A stretch of DNA of 33,028 bases from an uncultured archaeon (GCA_964430885.1 CAYSHM010000018.1:28205-61232), one strand, 5' to 3'; positions 1,341 to 29,458 are shown, counted from the first letter of the stretch. Translations and numbers: made by a program. Notes: generated from the letters alone by a model not told the origin.

Positions 1341-2525
1341 ATGGAAAACTCCAAAGGATCGCTGCGGAGGGTATTGACAATGACTAAGAGCGGACCGGCA
1401 AGGGTTCAACTATCCGAGGAATGCAGGGGCGTCATAGCCCAGGCTGACGACGCTAACAGGATACACAACAAACACTACTTCGGCGTCCCCCTTCCAGGAG
1501 GCGGACTTGAACTATCATCACTGGAAAACGTCTATCTCCATGAGAAAGGGCGTGTAAGGGTGTTCTTCCAGGAGAGGGAGCTGGGATTCCAGGAGATTAT
1601 TTCCTTTCTCAAAGGGAGAACAGGGTTCGACTATCAGCTCTATATCGCCTACAGGGACCTCAAGTCCCGGGGCTTTATAGTGAAGTTCACCTCCCCCTTT
1701 GCCTTCTCACTCTATCCGGGTGGTGCCAAGATCTCCAAGACCCTTTCCAAGGTATTTGCAGATGTGTTCTCGGAGAGGGACAGGGTGGACACCTCGGAAC
1801 TCAGGAACAGGGTAAAGAGGGCCGTTGACCTCCGAAAGGATTATATGGTTCAGATAATAGACGAAGAAGGGGATGTGACCTATTACAGAATCGGTCTCAT
1901 GAGGCCCAAGGGCAGTGCAGCCCCCAAGGTAAGGGATGCCAGGATAAAAGGGACCCTCCAGGGGGGCCGGATAGTGGTGTTCGATACCCGGGACATGGAC
2001 CTGCTATGGGTAAGGGAGTTCCTGGGCCAAAGACAGCTTTCCACCCATCAGTTCTCACTTGTGGAAGGGATACACCTTATGGACAGAGGAGTCCTGGAAC
2101 TGGAGGATAGTGACGAGAAAGCACCTGACATCGAGGCATTGATGGAATTGGGCAGGGAGGCCGAAAAGAACTTCGATAAAAGGTATGAGCTCTACTGTGA
2201 CCTGAAAAAGAGAGGGTTCATCGTGAAGACAGGGTTCAAGTACGGTGCACATTTCCGCGCCTACCAGAGCGATCCGGACAGGGAGCACGCTGACCTTCTT
2301 TTCCACTATATTGACGGAGATGCCGAGCTGACATGGTCAGATGTTTCCAGAAGCGTAAGGGTGGCCCACGGAGTGAAAAAGAAGATGGTGTTCGGCTTCA
2401 CACTTGCCCTGCCCAAAGAGATGGACGGTAACGAAACGGAAGAGGGGGAAGGTAAAGGAAGTGACCCCAAGGCCAGGGATAAACTCGACTACATCATGAT
2501 AAAGAGGGAGAAACCCTACAGCTGA
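1341..2525 (+). CDS. endA: tRNA-intron (splicing) endonuclease, two-unit homodimeric (alpha2) type; start may be 1380
   Basis: Two repeats of the YxDLKxRG(F/Y)IVK motif. The C-terminal unit has GFKYGAHFRAY (Tyr), HAD (His) and GVKKK (Lys). The N-terminal unit lacks them but has the acidic loop DEEGDVTYY. GGAGG at 1366-1370 precedes ATG 1380. Confidence 0.93.
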   Translation: MENSKGSLRRVLTMTKSGPARVQLSEECRGVIAQADDANRIHNKHYFGVPLPGGGLELSSLENVYLHEKGRVRVFFQERELGFQEIISFLKGRTGFDYQLYIAYRDLKSRGFIVKFTSPFAFSLYPGGAKISKTLSKVFADVFSERDRVDTSELRNRVKRAVDLRKDYMVQIIDEEGDVTYYRIGLMRPKGSAAPKVRDARIKGTLQGGRIVVFDTRDMDLLWVREFLGQRQLSTHQFSLVEGIHLMDRGVLELEDSDEKAPDIEALMELGREAEKNFDKRYELYCDLKKRGFIVKTGFKYGAHFRAYQSDPDREHADLLFHYIDGDAELTWSDVSRSVRVAHGVKKKMVFGFTLALPKEMDGNETEEGEGKGSDPKARDKLDYIMIKREKPYS

Positions 2526-2704: not shown

Positions 2705-3217
2705 ATGCCCAAACTGCCAACGGAGATACTACAGAAAAGACTGCAGCAGGAGCTGATGATGTGCAAGCGAAAACTGCGCCATGAGATCAAGATAGACAAA
2801 CCCGATTTCGCAGATTTCCCGGTGACATTGGAGGTCACCATGAGCAGGGTCCCGGGACCGGTGGTGAAGATGAACAGGGTCACCCACAGATGGAAGCATG
2901 TGTTCACCATGAGGATCACCGATGAGTATCCCTACAAGAAACCCATTGTCAGATGGCATACGGAAATATTCCATCCCAACATAATGCTTCCACTGGACGG
3001 CGGTTACGTCTGCACAAAACTACTTGATACATGGGATTTCCAATCCAACCTTCTGTCCTTCATTCAGGCGGTGGAATCACTGCTCTCCAATCCAAATCCC
3101 CGAAGCCCCTACGGCTCGGAGAGCTGCATGAACGCTGCCAGATATTTCATAGATAATGATTACAATCCTCCAGGGATAGTCTCATCCACCAAGAGCGGGC
3201 CCCAGATAATAAAGTGA
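2705..3217 (+). CDS. Ubiquitin-conjugating enzyme E2 (UBC fold), eukaryote-like
   Basis: YPYKKPIVRWHTEIFHPNI...GGYVCTKLLDTWDFQSNLLSFIQAVESLLSNPNPRSP matches the UBC consensus YPxxPPxVxFxTxIxHPNI-G-(I/V)C...W...SLLxxPNPxxP. HPN is at aa 90-92 and the active-site Cys at aa 103 (TGC 3011-3013). Confidence 0.92.
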   Translation: MPKLPTEILQKRLQQELMMCKRKLRHEIKIDKPDFADFPVTLEVTMSRVPGPVVKMNRVTHRWKHVFTMRITDEYPYKKPIVRWHTEIFHPNIMLPLDGGYVCTKLLDTWDFQSNLLSFIQAVESLLSNPNPRSPYGSESCMNAARYFIDNDYNPPGIVSSTKSGPQIIK

Positions 3218-3363
3218 TATTTCATATCTTCATACTCTAGTTCACAATATTCATTTACATATAATCAATATAATATGGAACAATCAATTTAATACCTGAT
3301 AATCAGTCAAATACCGAATGATCAAGATAATACTGTATAGAACCACTTTCCGGGTGATATAGA

Positions 3364-3504
3364 ATGGGAAAGATAAAGATCGTCAGCGAGACAAAGAAAG
3401 AGACAGTGGAAAAGGAGCCCCCTGCAAACATCGACTTCAAATATGTGCCGGGGGAGACAGACATGAACGATATGAAGAAATTCTTGAAGAAATACCTCTC
3501 ATGA
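3364..3504 (+). CDS. Small 46-aa ORF (MGKIKIVSETKKETVEKEPPANIDFKYVPGETDMNDMKKFLKKYLS); stand-alone peptide or frameshifted N-terminus of the downstream JAMM protein
   Basis: Below the ORF-track length cutoff. GGTGA Shine-Dalgarno at 3353-3357, 6 nt before the ATG. Composition is coding-like after an AT-rich spacer. Confidence 0.65.
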   Translation: MGKIKIVSETKKETVEKEPPANIDFKYVPGETDMNDMKKFLKKYLS

Positions 3505-3556
3505 AAGAAGAGGATTTCCTTCATACCTAGAATCAGTCATACAGGCAGGTATCCAT

Positions 3557-5089
3557 ATGCAACTGAACCCCACTAGAGAGGACAAGACCGTAGACATGTT
3601 CATAGACAAGAGCGCGGTCAAGAAGATGCTCAAGCACTGCAGGGACTTCCGGGACGCCCGGCTGGAGGTTATGGGGTTCATGTTGGGACACAAGTACTCC
3701 TGGGGCGGAAAGGACTATACCGTAGTGGAGGAGGTCCTGACTTCTGATCTGGACACCTCATCGGTATCCGTGAAGTTCGCATCCTTCGAGCCTCTTTTCC
3801 AGGAGCTGGACCGTCTGGAGAAGGAAGGAAAGGACTATATTCTGGTGGGCTGGTATCATTCCCATCCAGGACATACGTCATTCATGTCACCCACGGATGT
3901 CAATACCCAAAGACAGATGTTCAGCAAGGAGTACCAGTCAGCCATAGTCATCGATCCCATCAGCATCGAGATGAAGGCCTTCGCACTTCAGAACAACGAG
4001 GTATACGAGAAACCCTACGCCATTCTTGATACCGAAGCAGGCGCTCCGGACGATGAGGATATCTACGAGGCCGAGATGGTAGAGGAGGAGTTGGTGGAGG
4101 CGGAGATGGTGGATGAGCTCACCAGTAAACCCGGCAGGAAACCCTCCTACAAAGAACCACTGAATCCTATACTGGACACCAGAGAGGTTGACCTTTTCAT
4201 CAGGAAGAAGGCAGCTGAGAAAATGCTGGAGCACTGCCGGGAATACCGGGACAGCCAGCTCGAGGTAATGGGATTCATGGTGGGTCACAGATTTGCATGG
4301 GGCGGTAGCGAGTTCACCGTGGTGGAGGATGTGGTAACCTCGGAGCTGGATGCCTCAGCAGTATCGGTAAAGTTCGCAAGTTTTGACGGTGTGTTCTCCG
4401 AGCTGGACAGAATGGAGAAACAGGGCAAGGACTACATTCTTGTGGGATGGTACCACTCCCATCCCGGCCATACATCCTTCATGTCCCCTACGGATATCGA
4501 TACCCAGCGGCAGATGTTCAAGAAAAAATATCAATCAGCCATTGTCATCGATCCCATCAACATCGAGATGAAAGCCTTCACCCTCAGGGGAGAGGATGTT
4601 TACGAGAAACCCTTTGCAGTACTCTGGGGCGAGGACGATGCACCAGCTATGGACGCTCCGGACGACATCTATGACGTCTTTGAGGACGACAGCATCCTTG
4701 ACGCTGACATACTTGAGGAGAAGACCAGAGGCGAGCTTACTGATGAATGGAAGGAGGAATGGCAGACTGAAGAACTTCCTCCTGCGGAACCGGAGATAGA
4801 ATTCGAGGCCGGTGAAGAAGAAGAGGACGAGGACGTTCTTTTCGACCCCATCTTGGACGATGAATTGTACGACGATATTGAGAACACAGAAGGCCCGGAA
4901 GAACACGATGACAAACTGGGCATTCTGGATTACAGCATGATCGCGGCCCCGGTGCTCTTCGGGGTATTGGGCGGCGCCTTCGGTTATATTTTTGAAAAGG
5001 ACAAGAGCAGGTCCTACAGCTATTTCCTGCTGATAGCCGGCATTATACTCTCCATCTTTTGGTACAGCATGAGCTATGTGATATATTAA
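3557..5089 (+). CDS. Tandem JAMM/MPN+ (Mov34/Rpn11-like) metallo-isopeptidase with acidic linker and two C-terminal transmembrane helices
   Basis: Two copies of EVMGFM(L/V)G...ILVGWYHSHPGHTSFMSPTD(V/I)xTQ...AIVIDP (E37/H101/H103/D114 and E236/H300/H302/D313). A ~100-aa D/E-rich stretch follows, then the hydrophobic segments MIAAPVLFGVLGGAFGYIF and YFLLIAGIILSIFWYSMSYVIY. Confidence 0.92.
   Translation: MQLNPTREDKTVDMFIDKSAVKKMLKHCRDFRDARLEVMGFMLGHKYSWGGKDYTVVEEVLTSDLDTSSVSVKFASFEPLFQELDRLEKEGKDYILVGWYHSHPGHTSFMSPTDVNTQRQMFSKEYQSAIVIDPISIEMKAFALQNNEVYEKPYAILDTEAGAPDDEDIYEAEMVEEELVEAEMVDELTSKPGRKPSYKEPLNPILDTREVDLFIRKKAAEKMLEHCREYRDSQLEVMGFMVGHRFAWGGSEFTVVEDVVTSELDASAVSVKFASFDGVFSELDRMEKQGKDYILVGWYHSHPGHTSFMSPTDIDTQRQMFKKKYQSAIVIDPINIEMKAFTLRGEDVYEKPFAVLWGEDDAPAMDAPDDIYDVFEDDSILDADILEEKTRGELTDEWKEEWQTEELPPAEPEIEFEAGEEEEDEDVLFDPILDDELYDDIENTEGPEEHDDKLGILDYSMIAAPVLFGVLGGAFGYIFEKDKSRSYSYFLLIAGIILSIFWYSMSYVIY
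3560..4625 (+). repeat. Intragenic direct duplication of the JAMM domain (period 597 nt, 199 aa)
   Basis: Residues ~2-157 align with ~202-356. A 24-aa core is identical in protein (nt 3827-3898 vs 4424-4495). Confidence 0.9.
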
Positions 5090-5146: not shown

Positions 5147-5635
5147 TCAAACCAGTTTGTAGCCGATGGTTCGGAGGAACTTTCTTCTGGCTTCCTTCTG
5201 CTCCTTGTTCTCCACAGCCGAGGCCGAACCGCCGTCTATGACACCCAGGATCCCGCGGCCCTCTCCGTCATCAGCCACTATCACCTTGGCGGGATTGCCT
5301 GTAGCGCAGAAGATATGGCATATCTCGGGGATGTTCCTTACAGCGCTGAGGACGTTAAGGGGGAAGGCGTTGCCTAAAAATATGATAAAGGAATGACCTG
5401 CGCCTATTTTCATTGCATTCTTTGCTGCCAGCTCTGCAAGCTCTTCATTATTCCCCTCAGTCCTTACAAGTCTTGAATCCGATGCCTCACAGAAGGCCAG
5501 CCCGAACTCGATCCCAGGTACGCTGTTCATAAGAGCCTCGTAAAGACCCTCTGCGGATTTGGGCGCAAAGTGTGCTTGGCCAAGTATGAAGTTCATATCC
5601 TCTGGTTTATCTATATCTACCTTTAGGATTTTCAT
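5147..5635 (-). CDS. Adenosine-specific kinase family protein (DUF355)
   Basis: KPEDMNFILGQAHF, FGLAFCEAS, IGAGHSFIIFL, IFCATGNP, GRGILGVIDG and RRKFLRTIGYK are characteristic of the family. GGTGA RBS upstream. Confidence 0.88.
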   Translation of the reverse strand: MKILKVDIDKPEDMNFILGQAHFAPKSAEGLYEALMNSVPGIEFGLAFCEASDSRLVRTEGNNEELAELAAKNAMKIGAGHSFIIFLGNAFPLNVLSAVRNIPEICHIFCATGNPAKVIVADDGEGRGILGVIDGGSASAVENKEQKEARRKFLRTIGYKLV

Positions 5636-6899: not shown

Positions 6900-9770
6900 T
6901 TGATTTTGACAAGCGATAAACTTAATCAGATCCTGGGCAAGGGTCCGTTGGAACTGGTCCGGGAAAACCAACGCTATACCTTGAAAATAGATCCTGTTCC
7001 TCCGTGCACTGTCTCCTGCCCCGCAGGGGTCAACGTGAAAGGATATATCAATCTCATATCACGGAAGAGATACAGGGAAGCACTGAGAGTTATTCTTGAA
7101 TCCAATCCCTTTCCGGGAATATGCGGACGTGTATGCACACACCCCTGCGAAGCATCATGTGCTTTGGAAGAATTGGAGGGAGCTTATCGGGGTATAGCCA
7201 TAAAGGACCTTAAACGATTTGCGGCTGACCAGGAGCTTTCATTAAGGGGGCTGGTAGTTGAGAAAAGGCCGGTATTATATGATGATCGGATCGCCGTGAT
7301 TGGAGCGGGGCCTGCCGGATTGACCGCAGCCTCGGACCTCGCTGATATGGGCTACAGTGTGACGGTATTCGAAAAGGAGGACCGTCCAGGAGGGATGCTC
7401 AATCAGTGCATCCCGCGATACCGCCTCCCGGAGGATATTGTCGAGTTTGAGATAGAGAGTATCAGAAGAAAGGGCGTGAATATTGTTACCTCACGGAAGA
7501 TCGAAGATATTGATTCCCTTTTCCACGAGGGTTTCTCAGCGGTGGCCATTGCTACCGGTGCGGGCAAGGATAGGGAACCCCGGATAGAATCCGCAAACAA
7601 GAAAGGCATCCTCGGAGCCCTGGAATTCCTATTTGACATCAATAAGGATATATGTGTGGAACTGGGCAGGCAGGTCCTGGTAATAGGAGGAGGCAGCTCG
7701 GCCTTCGACGCGGCAAGAACAGCCAAGAGATGCGGTGCCCAAGAGGTGACCATTGTATACCGCAGAAGCCAGGAGGAGATGCCTGCTAACCGGGAGGAGA
7801 TCCAACAGGCCCTGAGGGAAGGGATCAAGATCCGGACCCTTGCGGTACCCGTTAAGGTTGAGGGTGATGAACAGGTAAGTGGAATGACATTTCTCAAAGC
7901 TAGATTGGGGGAAAGGGACGAGGTAGGAAGAAAGCGCTTCATTCCCATAGAGAACTCGGAGTTCACCCTTCCCGCCGATAACATCATATTCGCTATCGGT
8001 TCGGTCCCCGAACCATTTGATTTCGGGCAGGAACTGGTGATCACAAAATGGGGAACCATTGACGCGGGCGATGCTGGCAGGACCCCTAGGGAGAAGGTTT
8101 TTGCGTGCGGCGATGCGGTCACTGGACCGTCCACCGTGGTGGATGTGATCGGATCCGGCCACAGGTTGGCAAATTCGGTGCACCGTACCCTCAGGAACAT
8201 AGCCGGTGAAGAAAGGCAGGATAGGGGAGGCATCGCTGTTGTTAAACCCAGTGAAATGGACACCGGTGAGCGGGCGGCCCCTGAGCACATATCATCCCAA
8301 GAATGGACCGGAAACTACCTGGAAGTAGAACTTGGATACCCTGAACACCTGGCAGTGGGTGAGGCCCTGAGATGTGCCGGATGCGGCAGCTGTCTGGAAT
8401 GCGACACCTGCGTCAGTTCATGTGACGGAGGCGTGCTGTATGGCGCCATGGATGGTCATTCCTTCTTACTCAAGGCCCCGGGAGAGCTGAGGGCGGAGGT
8501 CCTTCAGGGAAAAACTGATTGGGCCGTGATGAACAGTGAAGGGGAAAAAGCCCTGGAACTGATGAGTCTGGTACCCCGTGTTGACGGGAACAGCTGTATC
8601 GCCTGCGGAAGATGTGAGGAAACCTGTCCCTACAATGCTGTCCAGATCGTATTATCCATGGATTCCAAAACCCAGGCCGCTATTAACCTGGACATCTGCA
8701 GAAGCTGCGGCGAGTGCCAGGCGGTATGCCCCTCTGGAGCCCTTGATCAGGGTCCCTTTTCAAACTCCGCAGTTCAAGATATGATAGGGAATACGATCGG
8801 GAAGATAGGTGATAAACCCTTAATATTTGCCTCGTACTGGACCATGAACGGGGGAACTTTCAGGGATGATATTGTGGAGCTCATGGGAACAAGGAACCTG
8901 TCCGCCTTCCTGTTCATAGAGGCGCTGGCACAGGGCGCCGGAGAAATTTCAATAGTTACCTCGGCCCCTGAAAGCGGCGGAGATCATTATTTTCCTTCGG
9001 GCAGGAACATAACCGACATAGTATCCAGGACAAAGGAGGTCCTGGAGATCATCGGTATTGACCCGGAACGGATAAAGGTCATGAACAGCATGGAGGAAGC
9101 GGAATCCATGGACAGTTACCACCCGTCCCTAGGATCCAATCCCCATCCGCCATCTCCGAAAGAAGCTCCATTGTCAAGAGCATTAGCTCAGCTGAAATGG
9201 CTCACGGAGAACCCGAACCTGAAGCTTACTGAGAATAATAAGGAAGGAGAAGAGGTCAAAAAACAGTTCGCTTACTGGAAAGCTGCAGGCAAGCTTCTGG
9301 AGGCAGAGGGTTTCAGAGCCCTGGACCGGATGATGGGCTCCCTGGAAAAACTGTCGGCCAGCGGATCCCTGGAAGGGGAGGGGGCGAAAATAGCGAAGTC
9401 AGGAGACCGCACCATTACCGCAGCCCTGTTAATCTCACCGGAAGAACCGGACCATACGGGTTACGGAGGGCGGAGCTCGGGAGAGGTTCTCGGATCCATC
9501 CCTGGGATCAGGACCGTCGATATCGAAATGGGGAGTTCCGGCCCTGACCTGCTCCGATTCTCAAAGAGGACGAGGGATGAAATTTCTGAATATGAAAGAA
9601 TAGCCGGAGAACAGGGGGCATCCCTTATCCTGACCTCAACACCCTATGCTGCAATTTATATGGACATCTGCAAATATAGGGGTTCCTGGCAGACAGGAGG
9701 CATACCGGTAACCGACGTTTATACCCTGCTTCATGATCATCTTCGGGAAGAGAAGGGGGTGGAACAATGA
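6900..9770 (+). CDS. GltD/NfnB-like FAD/NAD(P) Fe-S oxidoreductase fused to ferredoxin, degenerate MvhD-like and degenerate CCG-like domains
   Basis: TTG start after GGAGTGTGAG. Motifs: PCTVSCP and NPFPGICGRVCTHPCEASC; IAVIGAGPAG; VIGGGSSAFDAAR...YRRS; FACGD; CAGCGSCLECDTCVSSC; CIACGRCEETCP; CRSCGECQAVCP; C-terminal LEIIGIDPERI and GASLILTSTPYA. Confidence 0.85.
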   Translation: MILTSDKLNQILGKGPLELVRENQRYTLKIDPVPPCTVSCPAGVNVKGYINLISRKRYREALRVILESNPFPGICGRVCTHPCEASCALEELEGAYRGIAIKDLKRFAADQELSLRGLVVEKRPVLYDDRIAVIGAGPAGLTAASDLADMGYSVTVFEKEDRPGGMLNQCIPRYRLPEDIVEFEIESIRRKGVNIVTSRKIEDIDSLFHEGFSAVAIATGAGKDREPRIESANKKGILGALEFLFDINKDICVELGRQVLVIGGGSSAFDAARTAKRCGAQEVTIVYRRSQEEMPANREEIQQALREGIKIRTLAVPVKVEGDEQVSGMTFLKARLGERDEVGRKRFIPIENSEFTLPADNIIFAIGSVPEPFDFGQELVITKWGTIDAGDAGRTPREKVFACGDAVTGPSTVVDVIGSGHRLANSVHRTLRNIAGEERQDRGGIAVVKPSEMDTGERAAPEHISSQEWTGNYLEVELGYPEHLAVGEALRCAGCGSCLECDTCVSSCDGGVLYGAMDGHSFLLKAPGELRAEVLQGKTDWAVMNSEGEKALELMSLVPRVDGNSCIACGRCEETCPYNAVQIVLSMDSKTQAAINLDICRSCGECQAVCPSGALDQGPFSNSAVQDMIGNTIGKIGDKPLIFASYWTMNGGTFRDDIVELMGTRNLSAFLFIEALAQGAGEISIVTSAPESGGDHYFPSGRNITDIVSRTKEVLEIIGIDPERIKVMNSMEEAESMDSYHPSLGSNPHPPSPKEAPLSRALAQLKWLTENPNLKLTENNKEGEEVKKQFAYWKAAGKLLEAEGFRALDRMMGSLEKLSASGSLEGEGAKIAKSGDRTITAALLISPEEPDHTGYGGRSSGEVLGSIPGIRTVDIEMGSSGPDLLRFSKRTRDEISEYERIAGEQGASLILTSTPYAAIYMDICKYRGSWQTGGIPVTDVYTLLHDHLREEKGVEQ

Positions 9771-11890
9771 GCCACAGGATAATGGAACATCCCGTTCTCG
9801 ATAAGAAAAGAGACCCCGTCATAACTTTTCTATTCAATGGGAAAGAGCTCAAAGCCCTGGAGAACGAGATGATATCCTCCGCCCTTTTCGCTTCAGGCAT
9901 CCATGAATTTGGAAAACATCACATGGATGATTCTCCCCAGGGTATATTCTGCGCCAACGGCCAGTGCGGCCAATGCCTGGTCCTGGTTGACGGAATACCC
10001 AAAAAGGCCTGTTTGACCCCGGTGACCCAGGGAATGAAGGTGGAATCCATGAACGGTCTGCCTCCCCTGCCCCCGGACGATAGACCTGTCCACCTCAGGG
10101 ATATCCAGGTGGAGAACATAGAGGTGCTTATTGTAGGAGCCGGACCCGCAGGTCTAGCCGCAGCAATGGAGCTGGGGGCCATGGATGTCCCCACCATAAT
10201 AGCCGACGATAAGGACATCCTTGGAGGAAAGCTCATTCTACAGACCCATAACTTCTTCGGATCCAAGAAAGGATGTTTCGCCGGGATGAGAGGGGCTGAG
10301 ATAGCCTCCTATCTGGCCCAAGGAGTGAGCGCACTTCCCTCGGTGGACATATGGATGGACTCCCCGGTGGTGGGAGTCTTCTCAGAGGGTGTTGTGGGCG
10401 TGGCCAAAGCAGGTTCATACAGGCTGCTTCAACCACGCTATTTCATAGTTGGGACTGGTGCAAGGGAGAAAATGCTGGCCTTCCCGGGCTGCGACCTCCC
10501 CGGAATTTACGGAGCCGGGGCCTTCCAGACCCTGGTGAACAGAGATCTGGTAAAGGCCGCCGACAAGCTCTTTATAGTGGGAGGAGGTAATGTGGGGCTT
10601 ATCGCAGCATACCAGGCACTCCAGGCAGGCATAGATGTCCTGGGTATTGTAGAGGCGCTACCCCGCTGCGGAGGCTACAAGGTGCACCTTGACAAGATAA
10701 AGAGATTGGGAGTTCCCATCTACACGTCCCATACAATACAGGAGGCCATGGGGAAGGACCGGCTGGACAAAGTCGCCATAACCCGGATCGACAGCTCATT
10801 CAAGCCCATTGAGGGTACTAGAAAGGAATTCTCGGTGGATACACTCTTGATCGCTGTGGGGTTATCCCCGGTGAACGAGCTCTATGACAAGGCAAAGGAG
10901 TTTGGTATCAATGCCGTATCCATAGGGGACACACAGGAGATTGCCGAGGCATCCGCGGCAATGTTCAGCGGTAAGATAGCCGGCAGACGAATACTTGAGG
11001 AAATGGGACATTCAGTCATTGTACCCCGCAGATGGGACGAGATGCTGGACATACTTAGAAAAAAGCCCGGACCTGTCCACGATTTCCGTATGGATACACA
11101 GGATGAGGGAATTTACCCCATAATAAGATGCATACAGGAGATCCCCTGCAATCCATGTTCCGAGGTCTGTCCCCTGGGGAGCATAACCATACCAACCTCT
11201 GTGATAGAGGATCTTCCTGCCTTCAAGGGTGAATGCGTGGGATGCGGCAGATGCGTTGCCATCTGTCCAGGGCTCGCCATCAATCTGGTGGACCGGCGCT
11301 ACGACCCCGGCAAGGAAAAGGCCTTGGTCATATTGCCGTGGGAGATGCCCAGGGGTACCATCGACCCGGGAATGAAGGTCAATGTAACGGGTTTTGAGGG
11401 TGAGGTGATGGGCCAGGGAAAGGTAGTTGCCATCAAGGGAGCGGAATGGCAGAACAGGAGACAGCTTGTCTCTCTGGAAGTGCCCTGGGACCTGGCTGAC
11501 GGTGTTGCAGGTATACGCACATATGGAAATGAACCCCTTGGCAGGGAGGTGGGCCAGGCAGAAAATGAGAGACTTGTACAAGGGGATGAGGATATCATCA
11601 TATGCAGATGCGAGAGAATAACGAAGGGTGACATACTGAGAGAGATCAGGGCTGGTGTCAGGGATATGAACGACCTCAAGGCCAGATTGAGGGTAGGCAT
11701 GGGACCCTGCGGGGGCAAGACCTGCATTCCGCTGATAGAACAGCTCTTCAGATGGGAAGGGGTAAAAGCGGATAATATCGCGCCTCATGTGAACAGGCCC
11801 TTCTTCCAGGAAATTCCAATGGATATTTTTTTCCGGACCTCTGTACAGAAAAGTGGTGAGGATCTGAACGAGTCAGGGGGTGAGAATTGA
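9767..11890 (+). CDS. Proline dehydrogenase/sarcosine oxidase alpha-like fusion: 2Fe-2S, FAD/NAD domain, 2x4Fe-4S and BFD-like 2Fe-2S
   Basis: GIFCANGQCGQCLV...KAC; VGAGPAGL; GTGARE...FPGCDLPG; VGGGNVG; CIQEIPCNPCSEVCP; CVGCGRCVAICPG; IICRCE...GMGPCGGKTC. ATGA overlap with the upstream gene. Confidence 0.88.
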   Translation: MSHRIMEHPVLDKKRDPVITFLFNGKELKALENEMISSALFASGIHEFGKHHMDDSPQGIFCANGQCGQCLVLVDGIPKKACLTPVTQGMKVESMNGLPPLPPDDRPVHLRDIQVENIEVLIVGAGPAGLAAAMELGAMDVPTIIADDKDILGGKLILQTHNFFGSKKGCFAGMRGAEIASYLAQGVSALPSVDIWMDSPVVGVFSEGVVGVAKAGSYRLLQPRYFIVGTGAREKMLAFPGCDLPGIYGAGAFQTLVNRDLVKAADKLFIVGGGNVGLIAAYQALQAGIDVLGIVEALPRCGGYKVHLDKIKRLGVPIYTSHTIQEAMGKDRLDKVAITRIDSSFKPIEGTRKEFSVDTLLIAVGLSPVNELYDKAKEFGINAVSIGDTQEIAEASAAMFSGKIAGRRILEEMGHSVIVPRRWDEMLDILRKKPGPVHDFRMDTQDEGIYPIIRCIQEIPCNPCSEVCPLGSITIPTSVIEDLPAFKGECVGCGRCVAICPGLAINLVDRRYDPGKEKALVILPWEMPRGTIDPGMKVNVTGFEGEVMGQGKVVAIKGAEWQNRRQLVSLEVPWDLADGVAGIRTYGNEPLGREVGQAENERLVQGDEDIIICRCERITKGDILREIRAGVRDMNDLKARLRVGMGPCGGKTCIPLIEQLFRWEGVKADNIAPHVNRPFFQEIPMDIFFRTSVQKSGEDLNESGGEN

Positions 11891-13047
11891 TGAGCTACGA
11901 TGTCATAGTCATAGGAGGCGGAAGCGTCGGCGTCCCCATCACATATTATCTGGCCGAGAAAGGGGTAAAGGTGCTCTGTATTGAGAAACATCCCTCCGTG
12001 GGCCAGGGCCAGAACAAATCCGCTATAGGCGGTATCCGTGCCACCCACTCCCATCCCGCAAAGATAGAGCTCTGCCTGGAAAGCCTCAGAATATTATCCA
12101 CATGGGAAGAGAGGACAGGGATGGATATAGACTGGAAACCGGGCGGGTATTCCTTCCCAGTTTACAGAGAGAAGGAGGAGATTATGCTCAAGGAGCTAGT
12201 ATCCCAGCAGAGAAAGTACGGCCTGAACATATCCTGGGTTGATGGCGCGGAGCTTCTGAAGATCATACCTGGTATCGAACCAAAAGGTCTTCGGGGAGGG
12301 ACCTACTCCCCAGGTGACGGTATGGTGAGCCCACACAAGGTGATTACCTCATTCGCAGTTCTGGCCAGGAAACTCGGTGCTGAATTCCTCTTCAATACCG
12401 AGGTTGATGACATAATTACCGAGAATAACGAAATCGTGGGTGTAAAGGCAGGAGGAGCTGAATACCATGCCCCCGTAGTGGTCAATGCGGCGGGAGCAAT
12501 GGCCAAGGAAGTAGGAGAGATGGTAGGACTGGCGCTTCCAGTGGTACCCGATAGTCACGAGGCTGCGGTCACCGCTCCGGTCCGGGAATTCCTGGAGCCG
12601 CTGGTCGTGGATATCAGGCCGGGTCCGGAAAGTAAGACCGCCAATTTCTATTTCGGACAGGAGAAGGGAGGCCATATCATATTCTGCTACACTCCAATAG
12701 ATAAGATATTGGGAACCTCAAGAGAATGCACCTCGGAGTTCATGCCCATAATATCCAACCGCCTGGTAGGACTGATGCCGAGACTGAAGAACCTATTGAT
12801 CAGAAGACAGTGGAGAGGGCTTTACCCAATGACCCCGGATGGTATACCGATGATAGGCCAGGCCGGACCAAAAGGGCATTATGTTGCCGTTGGAATGTGC
12901 GGACACGGACTGATGCTGGGCCCTGGCGTGGGCAAGAATATGGCAGCGCTCATAACTGAAGGAGAACCTCTTATGAACAGTGATGATTTCGATCTTTTAA
13001 GTCCCCAGCGCGGTTTCTGTGAGGATGATTGCGAGCTTCTGGATTGA
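11890..13047 (+). CDS. DAO-family FAD oxidoreductase (sarcosine oxidase beta / dye-linked L-proline dehydrogenase beta-like)
   Basis: YDVIVIGGGSVG, VVVNAAGA, WRGLYPMTPDGIPMIG, GMCGHGLMLGP. ATG 11890 overlaps the upstream TGA; GGGGGTGAG RBS. Confidence 0.88.
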   Translation: MSYDVIVIGGGSVGVPITYYLAEKGVKVLCIEKHPSVGQGQNKSAIGGIRATHSHPAKIELCLESLRILSTWEERTGMDIDWKPGGYSFPVYREKEEIMLKELVSQQRKYGLNISWVDGAELLKIIPGIEPKGLRGGTYSPGDGMVSPHKVITSFAVLARKLGAEFLFNTEVDDIITENNEIVGVKAGGAEYHAPVVVNAAGAMAKEVGEMVGLALPVVPDSHEAAVTAPVREFLEPLVVDIRPGPESKTANFYFGQEKGGHIIFCYTPIDKILGTSRECTSEFMPIISNRLVGLMPRLKNLLIRRQWRGLYPMTPDGIPMIGQAGPKGHYVAVGMCGHGLMLGPGVGKNMAALITEGEPLMNSDDFDLLSPQRGFCEDDCELLD

Positions 13048-27032: not shown

Positions 27033-27506
27033 ATGGGTTATTACCAACAGCTTCAGCTTGTTATAGAGATCCTTTTCGTGGTCCTCATCCTTCTATTGAT
27101 CTACCTGATATGGCAGAGGAAAAACCTCAACAGGGACACCGGAATTGACCGCCAGAGAGACTATCTGAGAAACTCATCGAGATTAACAAACCGGCAGAGG
27201 CGCCATCCCATATCCTCCGGGAACGTATGCCCGTACTGTTACGCAAGGAATGGTATTAATGACGTATACTGCCAGCGCTGCGGTCAGACCATCGGAGGGT
27301 GGAGCGGTCTGGATATCGAGGAGGAAATGGAAAGGGAGCCCGACCGGCATCCTCTGGATGATCTCCAGCCGGTTCCTCGGTCCATGAAAGACGAGTACAG
27401 AGGGGTATACGGCTGCCCCAACTGCCTTGAAACACTGCCTGTTGATTCAAGGGAATGCCATATGTGCGGAAGCACATTCTGGAGCACTGTGAGGAAAGAA
27501 ATGTGA
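27033..27506 (+). CDS. Membrane-anchored double zinc-ribbon protein
   Basis: N-terminal TM (LVIEILFVVLILLLIYLIW); CPYC-x10-CQRC and CPNC-x10-CHMC; GAGGGTGA RBS. Confidence 0.8.
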   Translation: MGYYQQLQLVIEILFVVLILLLIYLIWQRKNLNRDTGIDRQRDYLRNSSRLTNRQRRHPISSGNVCPYCYARNGINDVYCQRCGQTIGGWSGLDIEEEMEREPDRHPLDDLQPVPRSMKDEYRGVYGCPNCLETLPVDSRECHMCGSTFWSTVRKEM

Positions 27507-27558
27507 AATATCAAATAATCGGCTGTTATATCTGGCTGAACCAATAGGAGGGAATAGG

Positions 27559-28236
27559 TTGGCATCCATAATAAGTATGATCCAGAAGATCGCCAGAGAA
27601 GAGGTGCGTAAATTGAACACCTTGGAACTGGGCGTCGTAGAGACCGTGAACATGCACGAGAGCGAGAGCGATATTGTGAACTATGATTGTTCAGTGCTTC
27701 TGAAAGGGCGGAGCACTCCGGAAGGGGAACCCCTGAAGCTGGAGAACGTACCCATAGCCACCTATCACTCAGGATCTGTCAGAGTACCCTATGTGGATGA
27801 CCTGGTCCTAGTATCCTTCATAAACGGCGATGTGGCAATGCCGGTGATAATAGGAATAATATATTCAGCAGAGAAGAGACCCCCCCTGTATGCGGAAGGA
27901 GAACACCGCACTGAATTCGACCCATCAGTTTACAGGGCCAATGACAGTTCCGATCTGGACAAGCATGTGATGGTTTTCAATGGTACCAATGAAGAAAATG
28001 AGTTCCTCATAGAGTTCAAGGACGGACCAAAGATATCCTATAAGCCTGCGGGGATCGAGATAACAACGGGAAAAACCCTGGTTAAGATGGCCATGGACGG
28101 CGATGTTGAGGTAACTGGTGAAGCAAATATCACAGTTACGGCCAAGGGCAACCTCGAGGTAAAGACCGACGGCGACATCAAGATGGAAGCCGGCGGCAAC
28201 ATTACTATCAAAGGAACGAAAATCGAACTGAACTGA
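27559..28236 (+). CDS. Baseplate spike protein (GpV / Gp5 / VgrG C-terminal-like: OB fold plus beta-helix)
   Basis: LGVV...PYVDDLVLVSFINGDVAMPVIIGIIY (Gp5_OB signature PxxxDxVLVxFxxGDxxxPxIxG); C-terminal 8-residue beta repeats (DGDVEVTG/EANITVTA/KGNLEVKT/DGDIKMEA/GGNITIKG) ending KIELN. TTG start with GGAGG RBS. Confidence 0.85.
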   Translation: MASIISMIQKIAREEVRKLNTLELGVVETVNMHESESDIVNYDCSVLLKGRSTPEGEPLKLENVPIATYHSGSVRVPYVDDLVLVSFINGDVAMPVIIGIIYSAEKRPPLYAEGEHRTEFDPSVYRANDSSDLDKHVMVFNGTNEENEFLIEFKDGPKISYKPAGIEITTGKTLVKMAMDGDVEVTGEANITVTAKGNLEVKTDGDIKMEAGGNITIKGTKIELN

Positions 28237-28254
28237 ACTGAAGGTGATAAACAA

Positions 28255-29094
28255 ATGCCAGCTCCCCAAGGAAAGATGATGGGTCAGACCATAAAGATGT
28301 TGGCCCTTGCCGAGGCAATGCAGATACCCAAGGACTATGCGGGGGACGACACTTTCGAACATAACAGCGATTTCCCCGAATACCAGCCCGGAGTACCGAA
28401 GGGAACCAATATATTCATCCCACCCGGTGTGGACAAGATCACCGTGGACGCCTGCAACGATGTGAGCGATATAGTGATAGAGTTCATTGATGCACTTGCA
28501 GGGGGAGTTTGTACAGCCTGGCTTAACTGGCAGAGCGCAGCTATGATATCAGGGATGGTAATTAACGGACCCGCGGGAATGGTCCCCCCCGGCACCTTAA
28601 GCAGTCCGGTCATGATGAACACCGCCATGATACTTGCTACAGTGGTCCCGGGACAGGGAGCCAATTTCATGCCAATGGCCAAAGCCGTCGCCACGGGCAT
28701 TGAGACCGCCTGGAGCGCATGGGAAAAAGGTTTTACCATTCAGCTCCAGTATCCGCCCTTCGCTTCGGTCCCTGCTCCCACGGCACCGCCCACTCCCAAC
28801 ATACCTATGCCCGTGATAACCGGATCCTCCATCGGCGATCCAATGATGAAGAAAGCTGCGTTGTCAGGTCTCATGCTGGCAAACCTATCAGGGGTGACCC
28901 CTGACGACCTGACCCAACTGATATTCGATACATTTGCAGACGGATTCTGCATGATGTTCGACATATGGAAAGCTTCCACCATGGTAAGCAATGTAATGGG
29001 TACCGGACCCGTGCCCAGTTTCGCTCCGCCCTTCTCCCCTGTCGGGCCGGTGGTAGGCGGGACCAACATACCCAGTCCAGGAATATTCATATAA
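28255..29094 (+). CDS. Hypothetical Pro/Gly-rich protein with three internal pseudo-repeats, between spike and PAAR genes
   Basis: AGGTGA RBS 7 nt upstream; 18 nt downstream of the spike stop codon; no family recognised. Confidence 0.8.
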   Translation: MPAPQGKMMGQTIKMLALAEAMQIPKDYAGDDTFEHNSDFPEYQPGVPKGTNIFIPPGVDKITVDACNDVSDIVIEFIDALAGGVCTAWLNWQSAAMISGMVINGPAGMVPPGTLSSPVMMNTAMILATVVPGQGANFMPMAKAVATGIETAWSAWEKGFTIQLQYPPFASVPAPTAPPTPNIPMPVITGSSIGDPMMKKAALSGLMLANLSGVTPDDLTQLIFDTFADGFCMMFDIWKASTMVSNVMGTGPVPSFAPPFSPVGPVVGGTNIPSPGIFI

Positions 29095-29137
29095 TGTCCA
29101 AGTGATGATCAGTAATATCCAAAATGAGTTGATTGAT

Positions 29138-29458
29138 ATGCCAGAAGCTGCAAGATTGAACGATATTGCAAAATGCGAGGCCGATGTCCACGGCTGTCCA
29201 GGAGGACCCCATTCAGTCCAGGGACCAATATGCATCGGCAGTACGGATGTTTTCATCAATGGACTGCCGGCAGCAAGGGAGAGCGATACGGGAATACATG
29301 CCGTATGCTGCGGACCCAATACTTTCGAGATAAAGATTGGGAGCGCCACGGTCATGATAAATGGAAAGAAGGCTGCCAGAAAGGGGGATATGACCAAACA
29401 CTGCGGTGGTGTGGGTAAGATCGATGCAGGCAGCTCAGATGTGGAGATAGGCGGCTGA
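29138..29458 (+). CDS. PAAR-repeat spike-tip protein
   Basis: EAARLND, VFINGLPAARESD and VMINGKKAARKGD repeats; His/Cys metal ligands (HGCP, HAVCC, HCGG); ends GSSDVEIGG. Start taken at MPEAAR (29138); the ORF track begins at 29102. Confidence 0.92.
   Translation: MPEAARLNDIAKCEADVHGCPGGPHSVQGPICIGSTDVFINGLPAARESDTGIHAVCCGPNTFEIKIGSATVMINGKKAARKGDMTKHCGGVGKIDAGSSDVEIGG

Follow-up and report, generated by a model that had tools for sequence, protein, structure and literature searches.

A probable E2 and deconjugase half of a dispersed ubiquitin-like conjugation system in an uncultured marine archaeon of the Thermoplasmatota

The DNA analysed here, referred to as the window, is a stretch of 33,028 nucleotides from an uncultured archaeon (GCA_964430885.1 CAYSHM010000018.1:28205-61232). 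It lies on contig C18 of a host genome of 3.13 Mb in 44 contigs, estimated to be 91.6% complete. Three co-oriented genes between positions 2705 and 5089 make up the locus in question, a candidate part of a ubiquitin-like conjugation system. E2a (2705..3217, plus strand) encodes a UBC-fold E2 of 170 amino acids (aa). It is followed by a micro open reading frame (micro-ORF) of 46 aa (3364..3504, plus strand), recognised by its alignment to the N-termini of related JAMM proteins. The third gene (3557..5089, plus strand) encodes a tandem JAMM/MPN+ protein of 510 aa, detected with the Pfam JAB model and composed of JAMM-A, a linker, JAMM-B, an acidic linker and a C-terminal hydrophobic hairpin. An earlier reading of this DNA, made from the sequence alone and called below the sequence-only reading, had described the E2 and the JAMM protein as products of adjacent co-oriented genes. 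Both genes and their coordinates are borne out by the ORF call; the micro-ORF between them had been overlooked.

The E2a product matches Pfam UQ_con (PF00179) with 51.9 bits (E 7.7e-14; curated cut-off 27) and possesses an HPN motif at residues 90-92 and a catalytic-type cysteine, Cys103. These four residues, H90, P91, N92 and C103, are invariant in all 23 aligned relatives of E2a. The family match and this invariance confirm that the gene encodes a UBC E2 with intact HPN and Cys103, as first proposed. In a sequence search of the PDB, the closest solved structure is that of human UBE2A/Rad6 (E 2.5e-11), and 239 E2 sequences of the PDB match E2a at E <= 0.01. The genome holds a second E2, E2b, on contig C14:45007-45513 (L004:1321-1830), which is 54% identical to E2a, keeps the HPN and the cysteine and is flanked by a DnaJ gene on one side and a DUF7121 coiled-coil gene on the other. 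We found relatives of the E2 at 279 places in a species-level genome collection and kept 80 loci for the counts. The metagenome-assembled genomes carrying these 80 loci are labelled Thermoplasmata, Thermoplasmatota, Methanomassiliicoccales, Methanobacteriota/Euryarchaeota or 'uncultured archaeon', and no Asgard or Aigarchaeota label occurs among them. The non-Asgard lineage suspected from the sequence can hence be named: according to the labels of all 80 relatives, it is Thermoplasmatota. In a few genomes the E2 match contains one in-frame stop, TGA in G049, G238, G196, G140 and G096 and TAG in G021, which could be due to recoding, selenocysteine, a frameshift or a broken gene.

Examination of the 80 loci shows that a same-strand JAMM gene lies within 1.2 kb 3' of the E2 in 70 of them, and since the pairing is kept so widely, it is not a matter of chance. 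Two of the ten remaining loci have fewer than 600 bases left downstream, and the E2s of the ten may belong to an E2b-type paralogue. A gene encoding a ubiquitin-like protein (Ubl) lies immediately 5' of the E2 in 67/80 loci and an E1 gene within 2.5 kb in 44/80; E1, Ubl, E2 and JAMM are all grouped in 43/80. The order varies in L041, where the Ubl is placed between E2 and JAMM. The locus in the window is a rearranged, broken-up copy of this phylum-wide E1-Ubl-E2-JAMM cassette and not an independent invention. The Ubl, E1 and E2 of our genome show, respectively, 51-82%, 46-60% and 45-68% identity to the cassette copies, and the order of E2 then JAMM is retained. On the other hand, the components are split over four contigs, with only E2 and JAMM adjoining. 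Furthermore, there are two copies of the E2, and the JAMM has been doubled, fused and extended by a hydrophobic hairpin; the N-terminal extension of the JAMM is a separate 46-aa gene, and the partner of the Ubl is a third JAMM domain, situated on a 417-aa protein. Fuchs 2018 (PMC6043591) mentions operons that combine homologues of Ub, E1 and E2 with JAMMs of a 'JAMM-3' group, which is close to Rpn11 and CSN5, and 'Ca. Thermoplasmatota E2' appears as a deep clade of the archaeal E2 tree in a preprint (bioRxiv 10.1101/2023.07.25.550441). In the full-text literature, supplements aside, we found passing mentions only and no paper studying the Thermoplasmatota system. The cassette is thus already known, if barely published, and what appears to be new is its membrane-centred expansion.

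The other components of the pathway are scattered over the genome. Its full set consists of a single Ubl, a single E1 of the cassette type, two E2s, and two genes that between them encode three JAMM domains. An E1 and a Ubl partner, whose absence from the genome had been named beforehand as refuting a conjugation pathway, were both found by the whole-genome search. The E1, on contig C17, is a protein of 286 aa with 168.6 bits to Pfam ThiF. Its residues C98, C153, C196, C199, H205, C215, C281 and H284 are invariant in 44 aligned sequences; C196, C199, C281 and H284 probably form a zinc site and C215, within S-C-T-G, is a candidate thioester cysteine. The Ubl, on contig C1, has 80 aa and the end ...PDPEGG-F. 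Its last Arg is 14 residues from the end, so that trypsin would leave a remnant of 14 residues, which the diGly proteomics proposed in the sequence-only reading would overlook; Glu-C would be expected to cleave behind the Glu of ...PEGG, leaving GG. Among cassette Ubls, 43/68 end at GG and 25/68 carry 1-14 residues more. Directly 3' of the Ubl on C1 is the gene of the 417-aa protein, whose JAMM domain is C-terminal (JAMM2). With E2b on C14, this distribution agrees with the dispersed pathway that the sequence-only reading had anticipated. A separate pair of MoeB and a MoaD/ThiS carrier ending in GG is encoded on contig C8 and covers the ordinary sulfur-carrier role. In the other genomes sampled from this family (f1), three in number, the E2, the micro-ORF, the JAMM and a downstream PF04008 gene stay together, and so do the Ubl and JAMM2.

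The JAMM protein scores 88.7 bits against Pfam JAB, in two stretches (cut-off 22.5). JAMM-A (residues 1-163; 3557..4045, plus strand) is delimited by its motif, an AlphaFold2 (AF2) model and Foldseek, and JAMM-B (residues 199-362; 4151..4642, plus strand) by its motif, the repeat alignment and AF2; the two are 69% identical across 162 residues. HSHPG is present at residues 101 and 300, and the two metal/catalytic sets, E37/H101/H103/S111/D114 and E236/H300/H302/S310/D313, coincide with invariant alignment columns. By sequence, JAMM-A is nearest to Rpn11 of yeast and human (E 1.7e-17); the Caldiarchaeum Rpn11 homologue (9.7e-12) and CSN5 (5.6e-11) come next, with BRCC36 (6.6e-4) and AMSH-LP (2.3e-3) more distant and the AMSH-type proteins ranging from 2e-3 to 6e-3. 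In the AF2 model of residues 1-375, both JAMM domains have a predicted local distance difference test score (pLDDT) near 90. Foldseek places Rpn11 5u4p_B (E 8.8e-13, template modelling score (TM) 0.81) at the top for this model, together with 6fnn_A, the Rpn11 homologue of Caldiarchaeum (TM 0.80). Collectively, the sequence ranking, the Foldseek matches and the completeness of both metal sites substantiate the initial description of a doubled, Rpn11/CSN5-like JAMM motif.

Behind a very acidic linker, the JAMM protein terminates in two hydrophobic segments, residues 453-480 and 487-510 (4913..5086, plus strand), predicted from hydropathy to be membrane helices and connected by a short K/R loop. 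Helix 1 bears a conserved FGxLGGxFG motif. A homologous hairpin is found in 31/54 Thermoplasmatota JAMM relatives of at least 280 aa, a filter that leaves out short soluble JAMMs by design, and a membrane tail is present in only 4/69 resolved JAMM ORFs of the 80 loci (L008, L009, L014 and L029). The sequence-only reading spoke of a membrane-anchored eraser; the anchor stands, as a predicted tether conserved in relatives, and action of the enzyme at the membrane is what we infer from it. Two adjacent JAMM genes, one encoding 263 aa without hydrophobic tail and the other 362 aa with the hairpin, are observed in G170, a genome of another genus of the same family. Because G170 keeps its two JAMMs unfused, the 510-aa protein is best seen as an in-frame fusion. 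At that locus (L114, G170:C34:4013-7549), the E2, the micro-ORF, the 263-aa JAMM, which has a basic tail, and the 362-aa JAMM are all separate genes. Several other architectures were encountered among the relatives: P0083 (475 aa) is a double JAMM behind a zinc ribbon and without membrane tail, P0110 (534 aa) is an E2-JAMM fusion with PQQ-type repeats, and in L112 (G186:C51) a JAMM lies within a frame of 1760 aa, with a RING-like finger about 5 kb away.

The gap of 339 bases between the E2 and JAMM genes contains the 46-codon micro-ORF (3364-3504, +). Its product, MGKIKIVSETKKE..EPP.., aligns with the first ~25 residues of the cassette JAMMs, which share the motif PKIVSETKRE..EPP. Its residues P19 and P20 are invariant in 15/15 sequences. 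In most relatives, obtained by tblastn on the loci, the corresponding stretch is an N-terminal extension of a JAMM of 205-225 aa that starts a few bases past the E2; an intact separate micro-ORF is found also in the nearest relatives of the window's locus (L008, L009, L029, L109, L110 and L114). The ratio of non-synonymous to synonymous substitution rates (dN/dS) equals 0.01, 0.16 and 0.18 in 3/10 pairs with unsaturated dS. Two short contigs from an RNA library (metatranscriptome) of the same study fall on the locus, one on 3392-3584, covering the micro-ORF and the spacer behind it, and the other on 4175-4325, within JAMM-B; they give a hint of transcription, and in this small run other parts of the stretch have no such contig. 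No Pfam or PADLOC family matches the micro-ORF. Judged by its alignment, it is the detached N-terminal extension of the cassette JAMMs, and the micro-protein presumably still works with the JAMM. Its detachment would mark the conserved N-terminal extension as a functional module.

The window was said to lack any Ubl, E1 or RING gene, and the searches of the genome indeed gave no such match within it; pattern and profile scans for RING-like fingers found none in the window or on its contig C18. Elsewhere in the genome, the search for RING/E3 proteins suggested by the sequence-only reading did yield candidates, with marginal Pfam scores. Pfam zf-RING_2 gives 14 sub-threshold, full-length matches, a ligand-pattern scan detects 14 fingers in 11 proteins, and a profile built from 13 fingers has 16 matches. 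The eight ligands, arranged as C-x2-C-x12-C-x-C-x4-H-x2-C-x6-C-x2-C (C4HC3), are invariant in 13/13 domains. Membrane segments are predicted in 9/11 finger proteins. Six of these are composed of an N-terminal hydrophobic segment, an ectodomain of ~950-1250 residues, a second membrane segment and then the finger; in the five of the six that were scanned, Pfam identifies ectodomain modules (LamG, beta-helix/NosD, BNR, PKD, fn3 and cadherin-like). Of the other membrane finger proteins, two are N-terminally anchored and one is a CDP-alcohol phosphatidyltransferase (C5:33061-33993, L099). With six predicted helices and a C-terminal finger, this last protein combines a lipid-synthesis enzyme with a possible ligase domain. 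The AF2 model of the finger has a pLDDT of 86, and the Foldseek matches listed at ranks 1-50 are all RING E3 domains (TM 0.53-0.71).

The distribution of the fingers was followed in a sample of 401 Thermoplasmatota genomes from 162 genera. The E2 occurs in 89/401 genomes (48/162 genera) and the finger in 110/401; the two are found together in 82 genomes, the E2 alone in 7, the finger alone in 28 and neither in 284. In family f11 the identical 29/48 genomes hold both. In 7 genomes of 3 families, a finger ends a giant frame located 16 to ~1,100 bases 5' of the E2 on the same strand. The copy numbers of E2 and finger rise together: all four genomes of the window's family have 2 E2s and at least 16-17 fingers, and in G158 the numbers are 7 E2s and 17 or more fingers, most other genomes having 1 and 1. 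Together with the ligand pattern and the predicted fold, these observations suggest that the RING-like tails may serve as ligases.

We assign a probability of roughly 70% to the reading in which the locus supplies the E2 and the deconjugase, half of a eukaryote-like system for Ubl conjugation, the cassette of which has been dispersed and enlarged in this marine family. In the corresponding mechanism, each step of which is drawn from homology, the Ubl (...PDPEGG-F) would be trimmed to GG by a JAMM, most simply by the adjacent JAMM2. The compact E1 of contig C17, with Cys215 in SCTG and a Cys/His zinc site, would then adenylate and carry the Ubl and hand it to Cys103 of E2a, or to E2b. The charged E2 could be recruited by the C4HC3 fingers on the tails of the 11 proteins, 9 of them with predicted membrane segments. 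Finally, the tethered double JAMM, with two intact sites on one chain, might strip the tag near the membrane. The enzymes themselves are ordinary for the phylum. Unusual in this family are the dispersal together with the E2 duplication, the doubled, fused and tailed JAMM with its split micro-protein, and the RING-like expansion.

Several observations weigh against this interpretation. The Ubl reaches 18.2 bits against Pfam ubiquitin, below the cut-off of 25.4; it is identified as a Ubl because it is orthologous to the cassette Ubls and has the GG end. Similarly, the best score of a finger against zf-RING_2 is 25.5 bits (cut-off 27.3), the Prok-RING_1 cut-off of 29.1 is reached in 1/10 scanned proteins (29.2), 3/10 have no RING match at E <= 0.05, and the Foldseek E for the finger model is 5.7e-3 at best and weaker for the other matches. 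In 28 of the 401 genomes a finger is present without an E2, among them 15/24 genomes of family f3, each with one finger, and the counts include related genomes and so are not independent samples. As for the micro-ORF, the called proteins of 25-81 aa in a 5.8-billion-protein collection include only the window's own copy. The RNA-library contigs that fall on the locus may stem from DNA, which such a library can contain. In the AF2 model of residues 1-375, the predicted TM-score (pTM) is 0.47 and the linker has a pLDDT below 50, so that the packing of one JAMM against the other is without confidence. The membrane topology raises a further objection. Ahead of helix 1 there are 0 K/R and 8 D/E, and the loop has 3 K/R; with its basic loop and acidic flank, a pattern of the window's own clade, the hairpin would, by the charge rule alone, place the loop inside. 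We nevertheless read the JAMM domains as probably cytoplasmic, because the protein has no N-terminal signal sequence, the sister families have 5-7 K/R immediately before helix 1, and the pathway needs cytosolic ATP and partners. Finally, our literature search found no published biochemistry on any Thermoplasmatota component.

Some of the same data could be explained differently. The E2-adjacent JAMM might mainly mature and recycle the Ubl, by trimming the precursor and rescuing E2- or E1-trapped Ubl, instead of erasing substrate tags, and its hydrophobic tail would then merely concentrate or oligomerise it. This would account for the association of the JAMM with E2 in 70/80 loci regardless of the tail, which is present in 4/69, as well as for the 25/68 Ubls that need trimming. 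The FGxLGGxFG of helix 1 also resembles a packing motif, and the Caldiarchaeum Rpn11 homologue does both jobs, according to the available text of PMC6043591. However, JAMM2, directly 3' of the Ubl, is a simpler candidate for trimming, and several JAMM families have conserved the membrane tail; overall, we regard a mainly maturing role as unlikely. The fused form of the protein also deserves scrutiny, since the two separate genes of G170, 263 and 362 aa, might suggest that an assembly error or a frameshift had joined two genes here. Such an artefact is very hard to reconcile with the records: the identical 510-aa protein is known from 3 contigs, and no differences are seen in a 32,966-base DNA contig that spans the stretch, nor in other contigs, from a third sample, where these overlap it. 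Moreover, the second unit's conserved N-terminus (LNPILD...) follows directly at the junction, and a double JAMM with hairpin has arisen independently in L029/P0074.

Two other known functions of such proteins were weighed against the conjugation system. The locus could be taken for a bacterial-type defence module against viruses, like Bil or CBASS (cyclic-oligonucleotide-based antiphage signalling system) Cap2/Cap3, given that generic JAB models of PADLOC match the JAMM (best E 1.4e-17), that the PADLOC E1-E2 models recognise the E1 in its ThiF part, and that the NCBIfam 6A-MBL cap2_3 model gives a partial match of 24.4 bits (cut-off 320). Yet the E2 has no PADLOC match and there is no fused E1-E2; the neighbours are endA and PF04008, in a position conserved within the family; the E2 is found in 48/162 sampled genera, with whole families all positive; and E2 and JAMM are nearest to eukaryotic UBE2A and Rpn11. 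A defence role is accordingly highly improbable; the PADLOC scan gave nothing beyond generic JAB and ThiF matches, and the flanks agree with the earlier statement that this is not a defence island. Slighter still is the chance of an E2-independent sulfur-carrier system of the Urm1 or small archaeal modifier protein (SAMP) type, in which the E2-like protein would be a non-catalytic adaptor resembling ubiquitin E2 variants (UEVs). Archaea do generally use SAMPs, and the NCBIfam haloarchaeal desampylase model recognises the JAMM with 73 bits (cut-off 130), but the genome has its own MoeB and MoaD/ThiS pair ending in GG, and HPN and Cys103 are kept in 23/23 sequences, unlike in UEVs.

Discussions of E1-E2-E3 signalling of the ubiquitin type usually treat it as a legacy of Asgard/TACK archaea. 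Under the conjugation reading, a phylum of the euryarchaeal side would carry the full enzyme logic of this signalling, and its diversification here would have proceeded in the eukaryote direction, with several E2s, many RING-like proteins and a specialised, localised deconjugase. A bolder version, which we consider possible but doubtful, is that a membrane-centred, eukaryote-style ubiquitin network has arisen outside Asgard. Such a network, taken as a whole, would comprise a dozen or more receptor-like transmembrane RING E3s with cytoplasmic tails, two E2s and one Ubl, and a tethered double Rpn11-like deconjugase with a detached regulatory micro-protein. [quoted passage not shown] If they proved to be ligases, the RING-tailed surface proteins would give receptor-type membrane E3s their first analogues among prokaryotes, and a pre-eukaryotic role of ubiquitin tagging would become testable with few soluble domains.

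Comparison with known systems helps to place the locus. The sequence-only reading had likened the eraser to AMSH, the JAMM deubiquitinase of ESCRT sorting. AMSH/STAMBP does share with the tandem protein an isopeptidase-type JAMM domain thought to act near the membrane, with the difference that the tether is here the protein's own hydrophobic tail. We dropped the analogy, JAMM-A matching Rpn11 at E 1.7e-17 versus 2e-3 to 6e-3 for AMSH-type proteins. In the 91.6%-complete genome, Pfam Snf7 has no match at E <= 0.1, although this model is insensitive on archaea and did not pass its Pfam cut-off in the Sulfolobus control, and Vps4_C has a best score of 18.9 bits, below the cut-off of 21.3; the JAMM protein contains no MIT domain according to Pfam. 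The AMSH/ESCRT picture is therefore not supported, since the JAMM is Rpn11/CSN5-like and neither Snf7 nor Vps4_C has a match above cut-off. The closest solved relatives of each JAMM belong to the Rpn11-Rpn8 and CSN5-CSN6 pairs, which likewise have two MPN domains side by side. In our protein, however, the arrangement is MPN+/MPN+, with a full metal site in both domains on one chain and no confident dimer packing predicted (pTM 0.47).

Eukaryotic RING-CH ligases of the MARCH/Doa10 type and receptor-like transmembrane RING E3 ligases are the comparison systems for the fingers. Common to them are the C4HC3 order, the location of the finger on a membrane-protein tail beside a transmembrane segment, and a predicted fold whose listed Foldseek matches are RING E3 domains, at E 5.7e-3 or weaker. 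The archaeal fingers differ in a last loop that is much shorter (6-7 residues), in scores that, save for one protein, stay below the Pfam RING cut-offs, in ectodomains built of archaeal surface modules and in E3 activity that is putative. In comparison with CBASS Cap2/Cap3 and Bil, the similarity of the E1 to the Cap2 models is confined to their ThiF part and the flanks are housekeeping genes. A closer parallel is offered by the operon of Caldiarchaeum subterraneum and Asgard archaea, which includes Ub, E1, E2, a small RING finger and Rpn11, as outlined in the available text of three papers (Nunoura 2011, PMC3082918; Hennell James 2017, PMC5654768; Fuchs 2018, PMC6043591). In the last of these, the portion available describes the Caldiarchaeum Rpn11 homologue as trimming a Ubl precursor that bears a tail past GG. 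The enzyme logic and the Ubl with a tail after GG are the same here, and the JAMM resembles the Caldiarchaeum homologue in both sequence (E 9.7e-12) and fold (TM 0.80). By contrast, the present system belongs to another phylum, is not gathered in a single operon and has a very compact E1 (286 aa), and its RING-like C4HC3 fingers reside on large membrane proteins, whereas the RING there is small and soluble.

The neighbours of the locus had been recognised as housekeeping genes, endA and a DUF355 gene, and Pfam and NCBIfam agree. Upstream lies endA, the tRNA-splicing endonuclease gene (1341..2525, plus strand; Pfam, NCBIfam), and downstream, on the minus strand, a gene of PF04008, the adenosine-specific kinase family formerly called DUF355 (5147..5635; Pfam E 2.8e-66). 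A PF04008 gene also follows the JAMM in the relatives L008, L009, L109, L110 and L111.

Three further regions of the window merit a brief mention. At its edge, 3-866 on the minus strand is an open-ended ORF of 288 aa, rich in Pro, Glu and Ala, with no Pfam family at E <= 0.01. Three consecutive large flavoprotein/Fe-S genes occupy 6900-13047 (+). The first product (956 aa) is similar to the glutamate synthase small subunit and has an HdrA2-like C-terminal part, the second (707 aa) is SoxA-like, and the third (386 aa) is a SoxB/ThiO-like oxidase. Four co-oriented genes at 27033-29458 (+) encode, in order, a double-zinc-ribbon protein, a VgrG/gp5-like 'Phage_base_V' OB-domain protein (NCBIfam phage_P2_V and VgrG-related matches), an unassigned protein of 279 aa and a PAAR protein (PF05488, E 1.9e-18). 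This set corresponds to the spike tip of a contractile injection or phage-tail-like apparatus, here in an archaeon.

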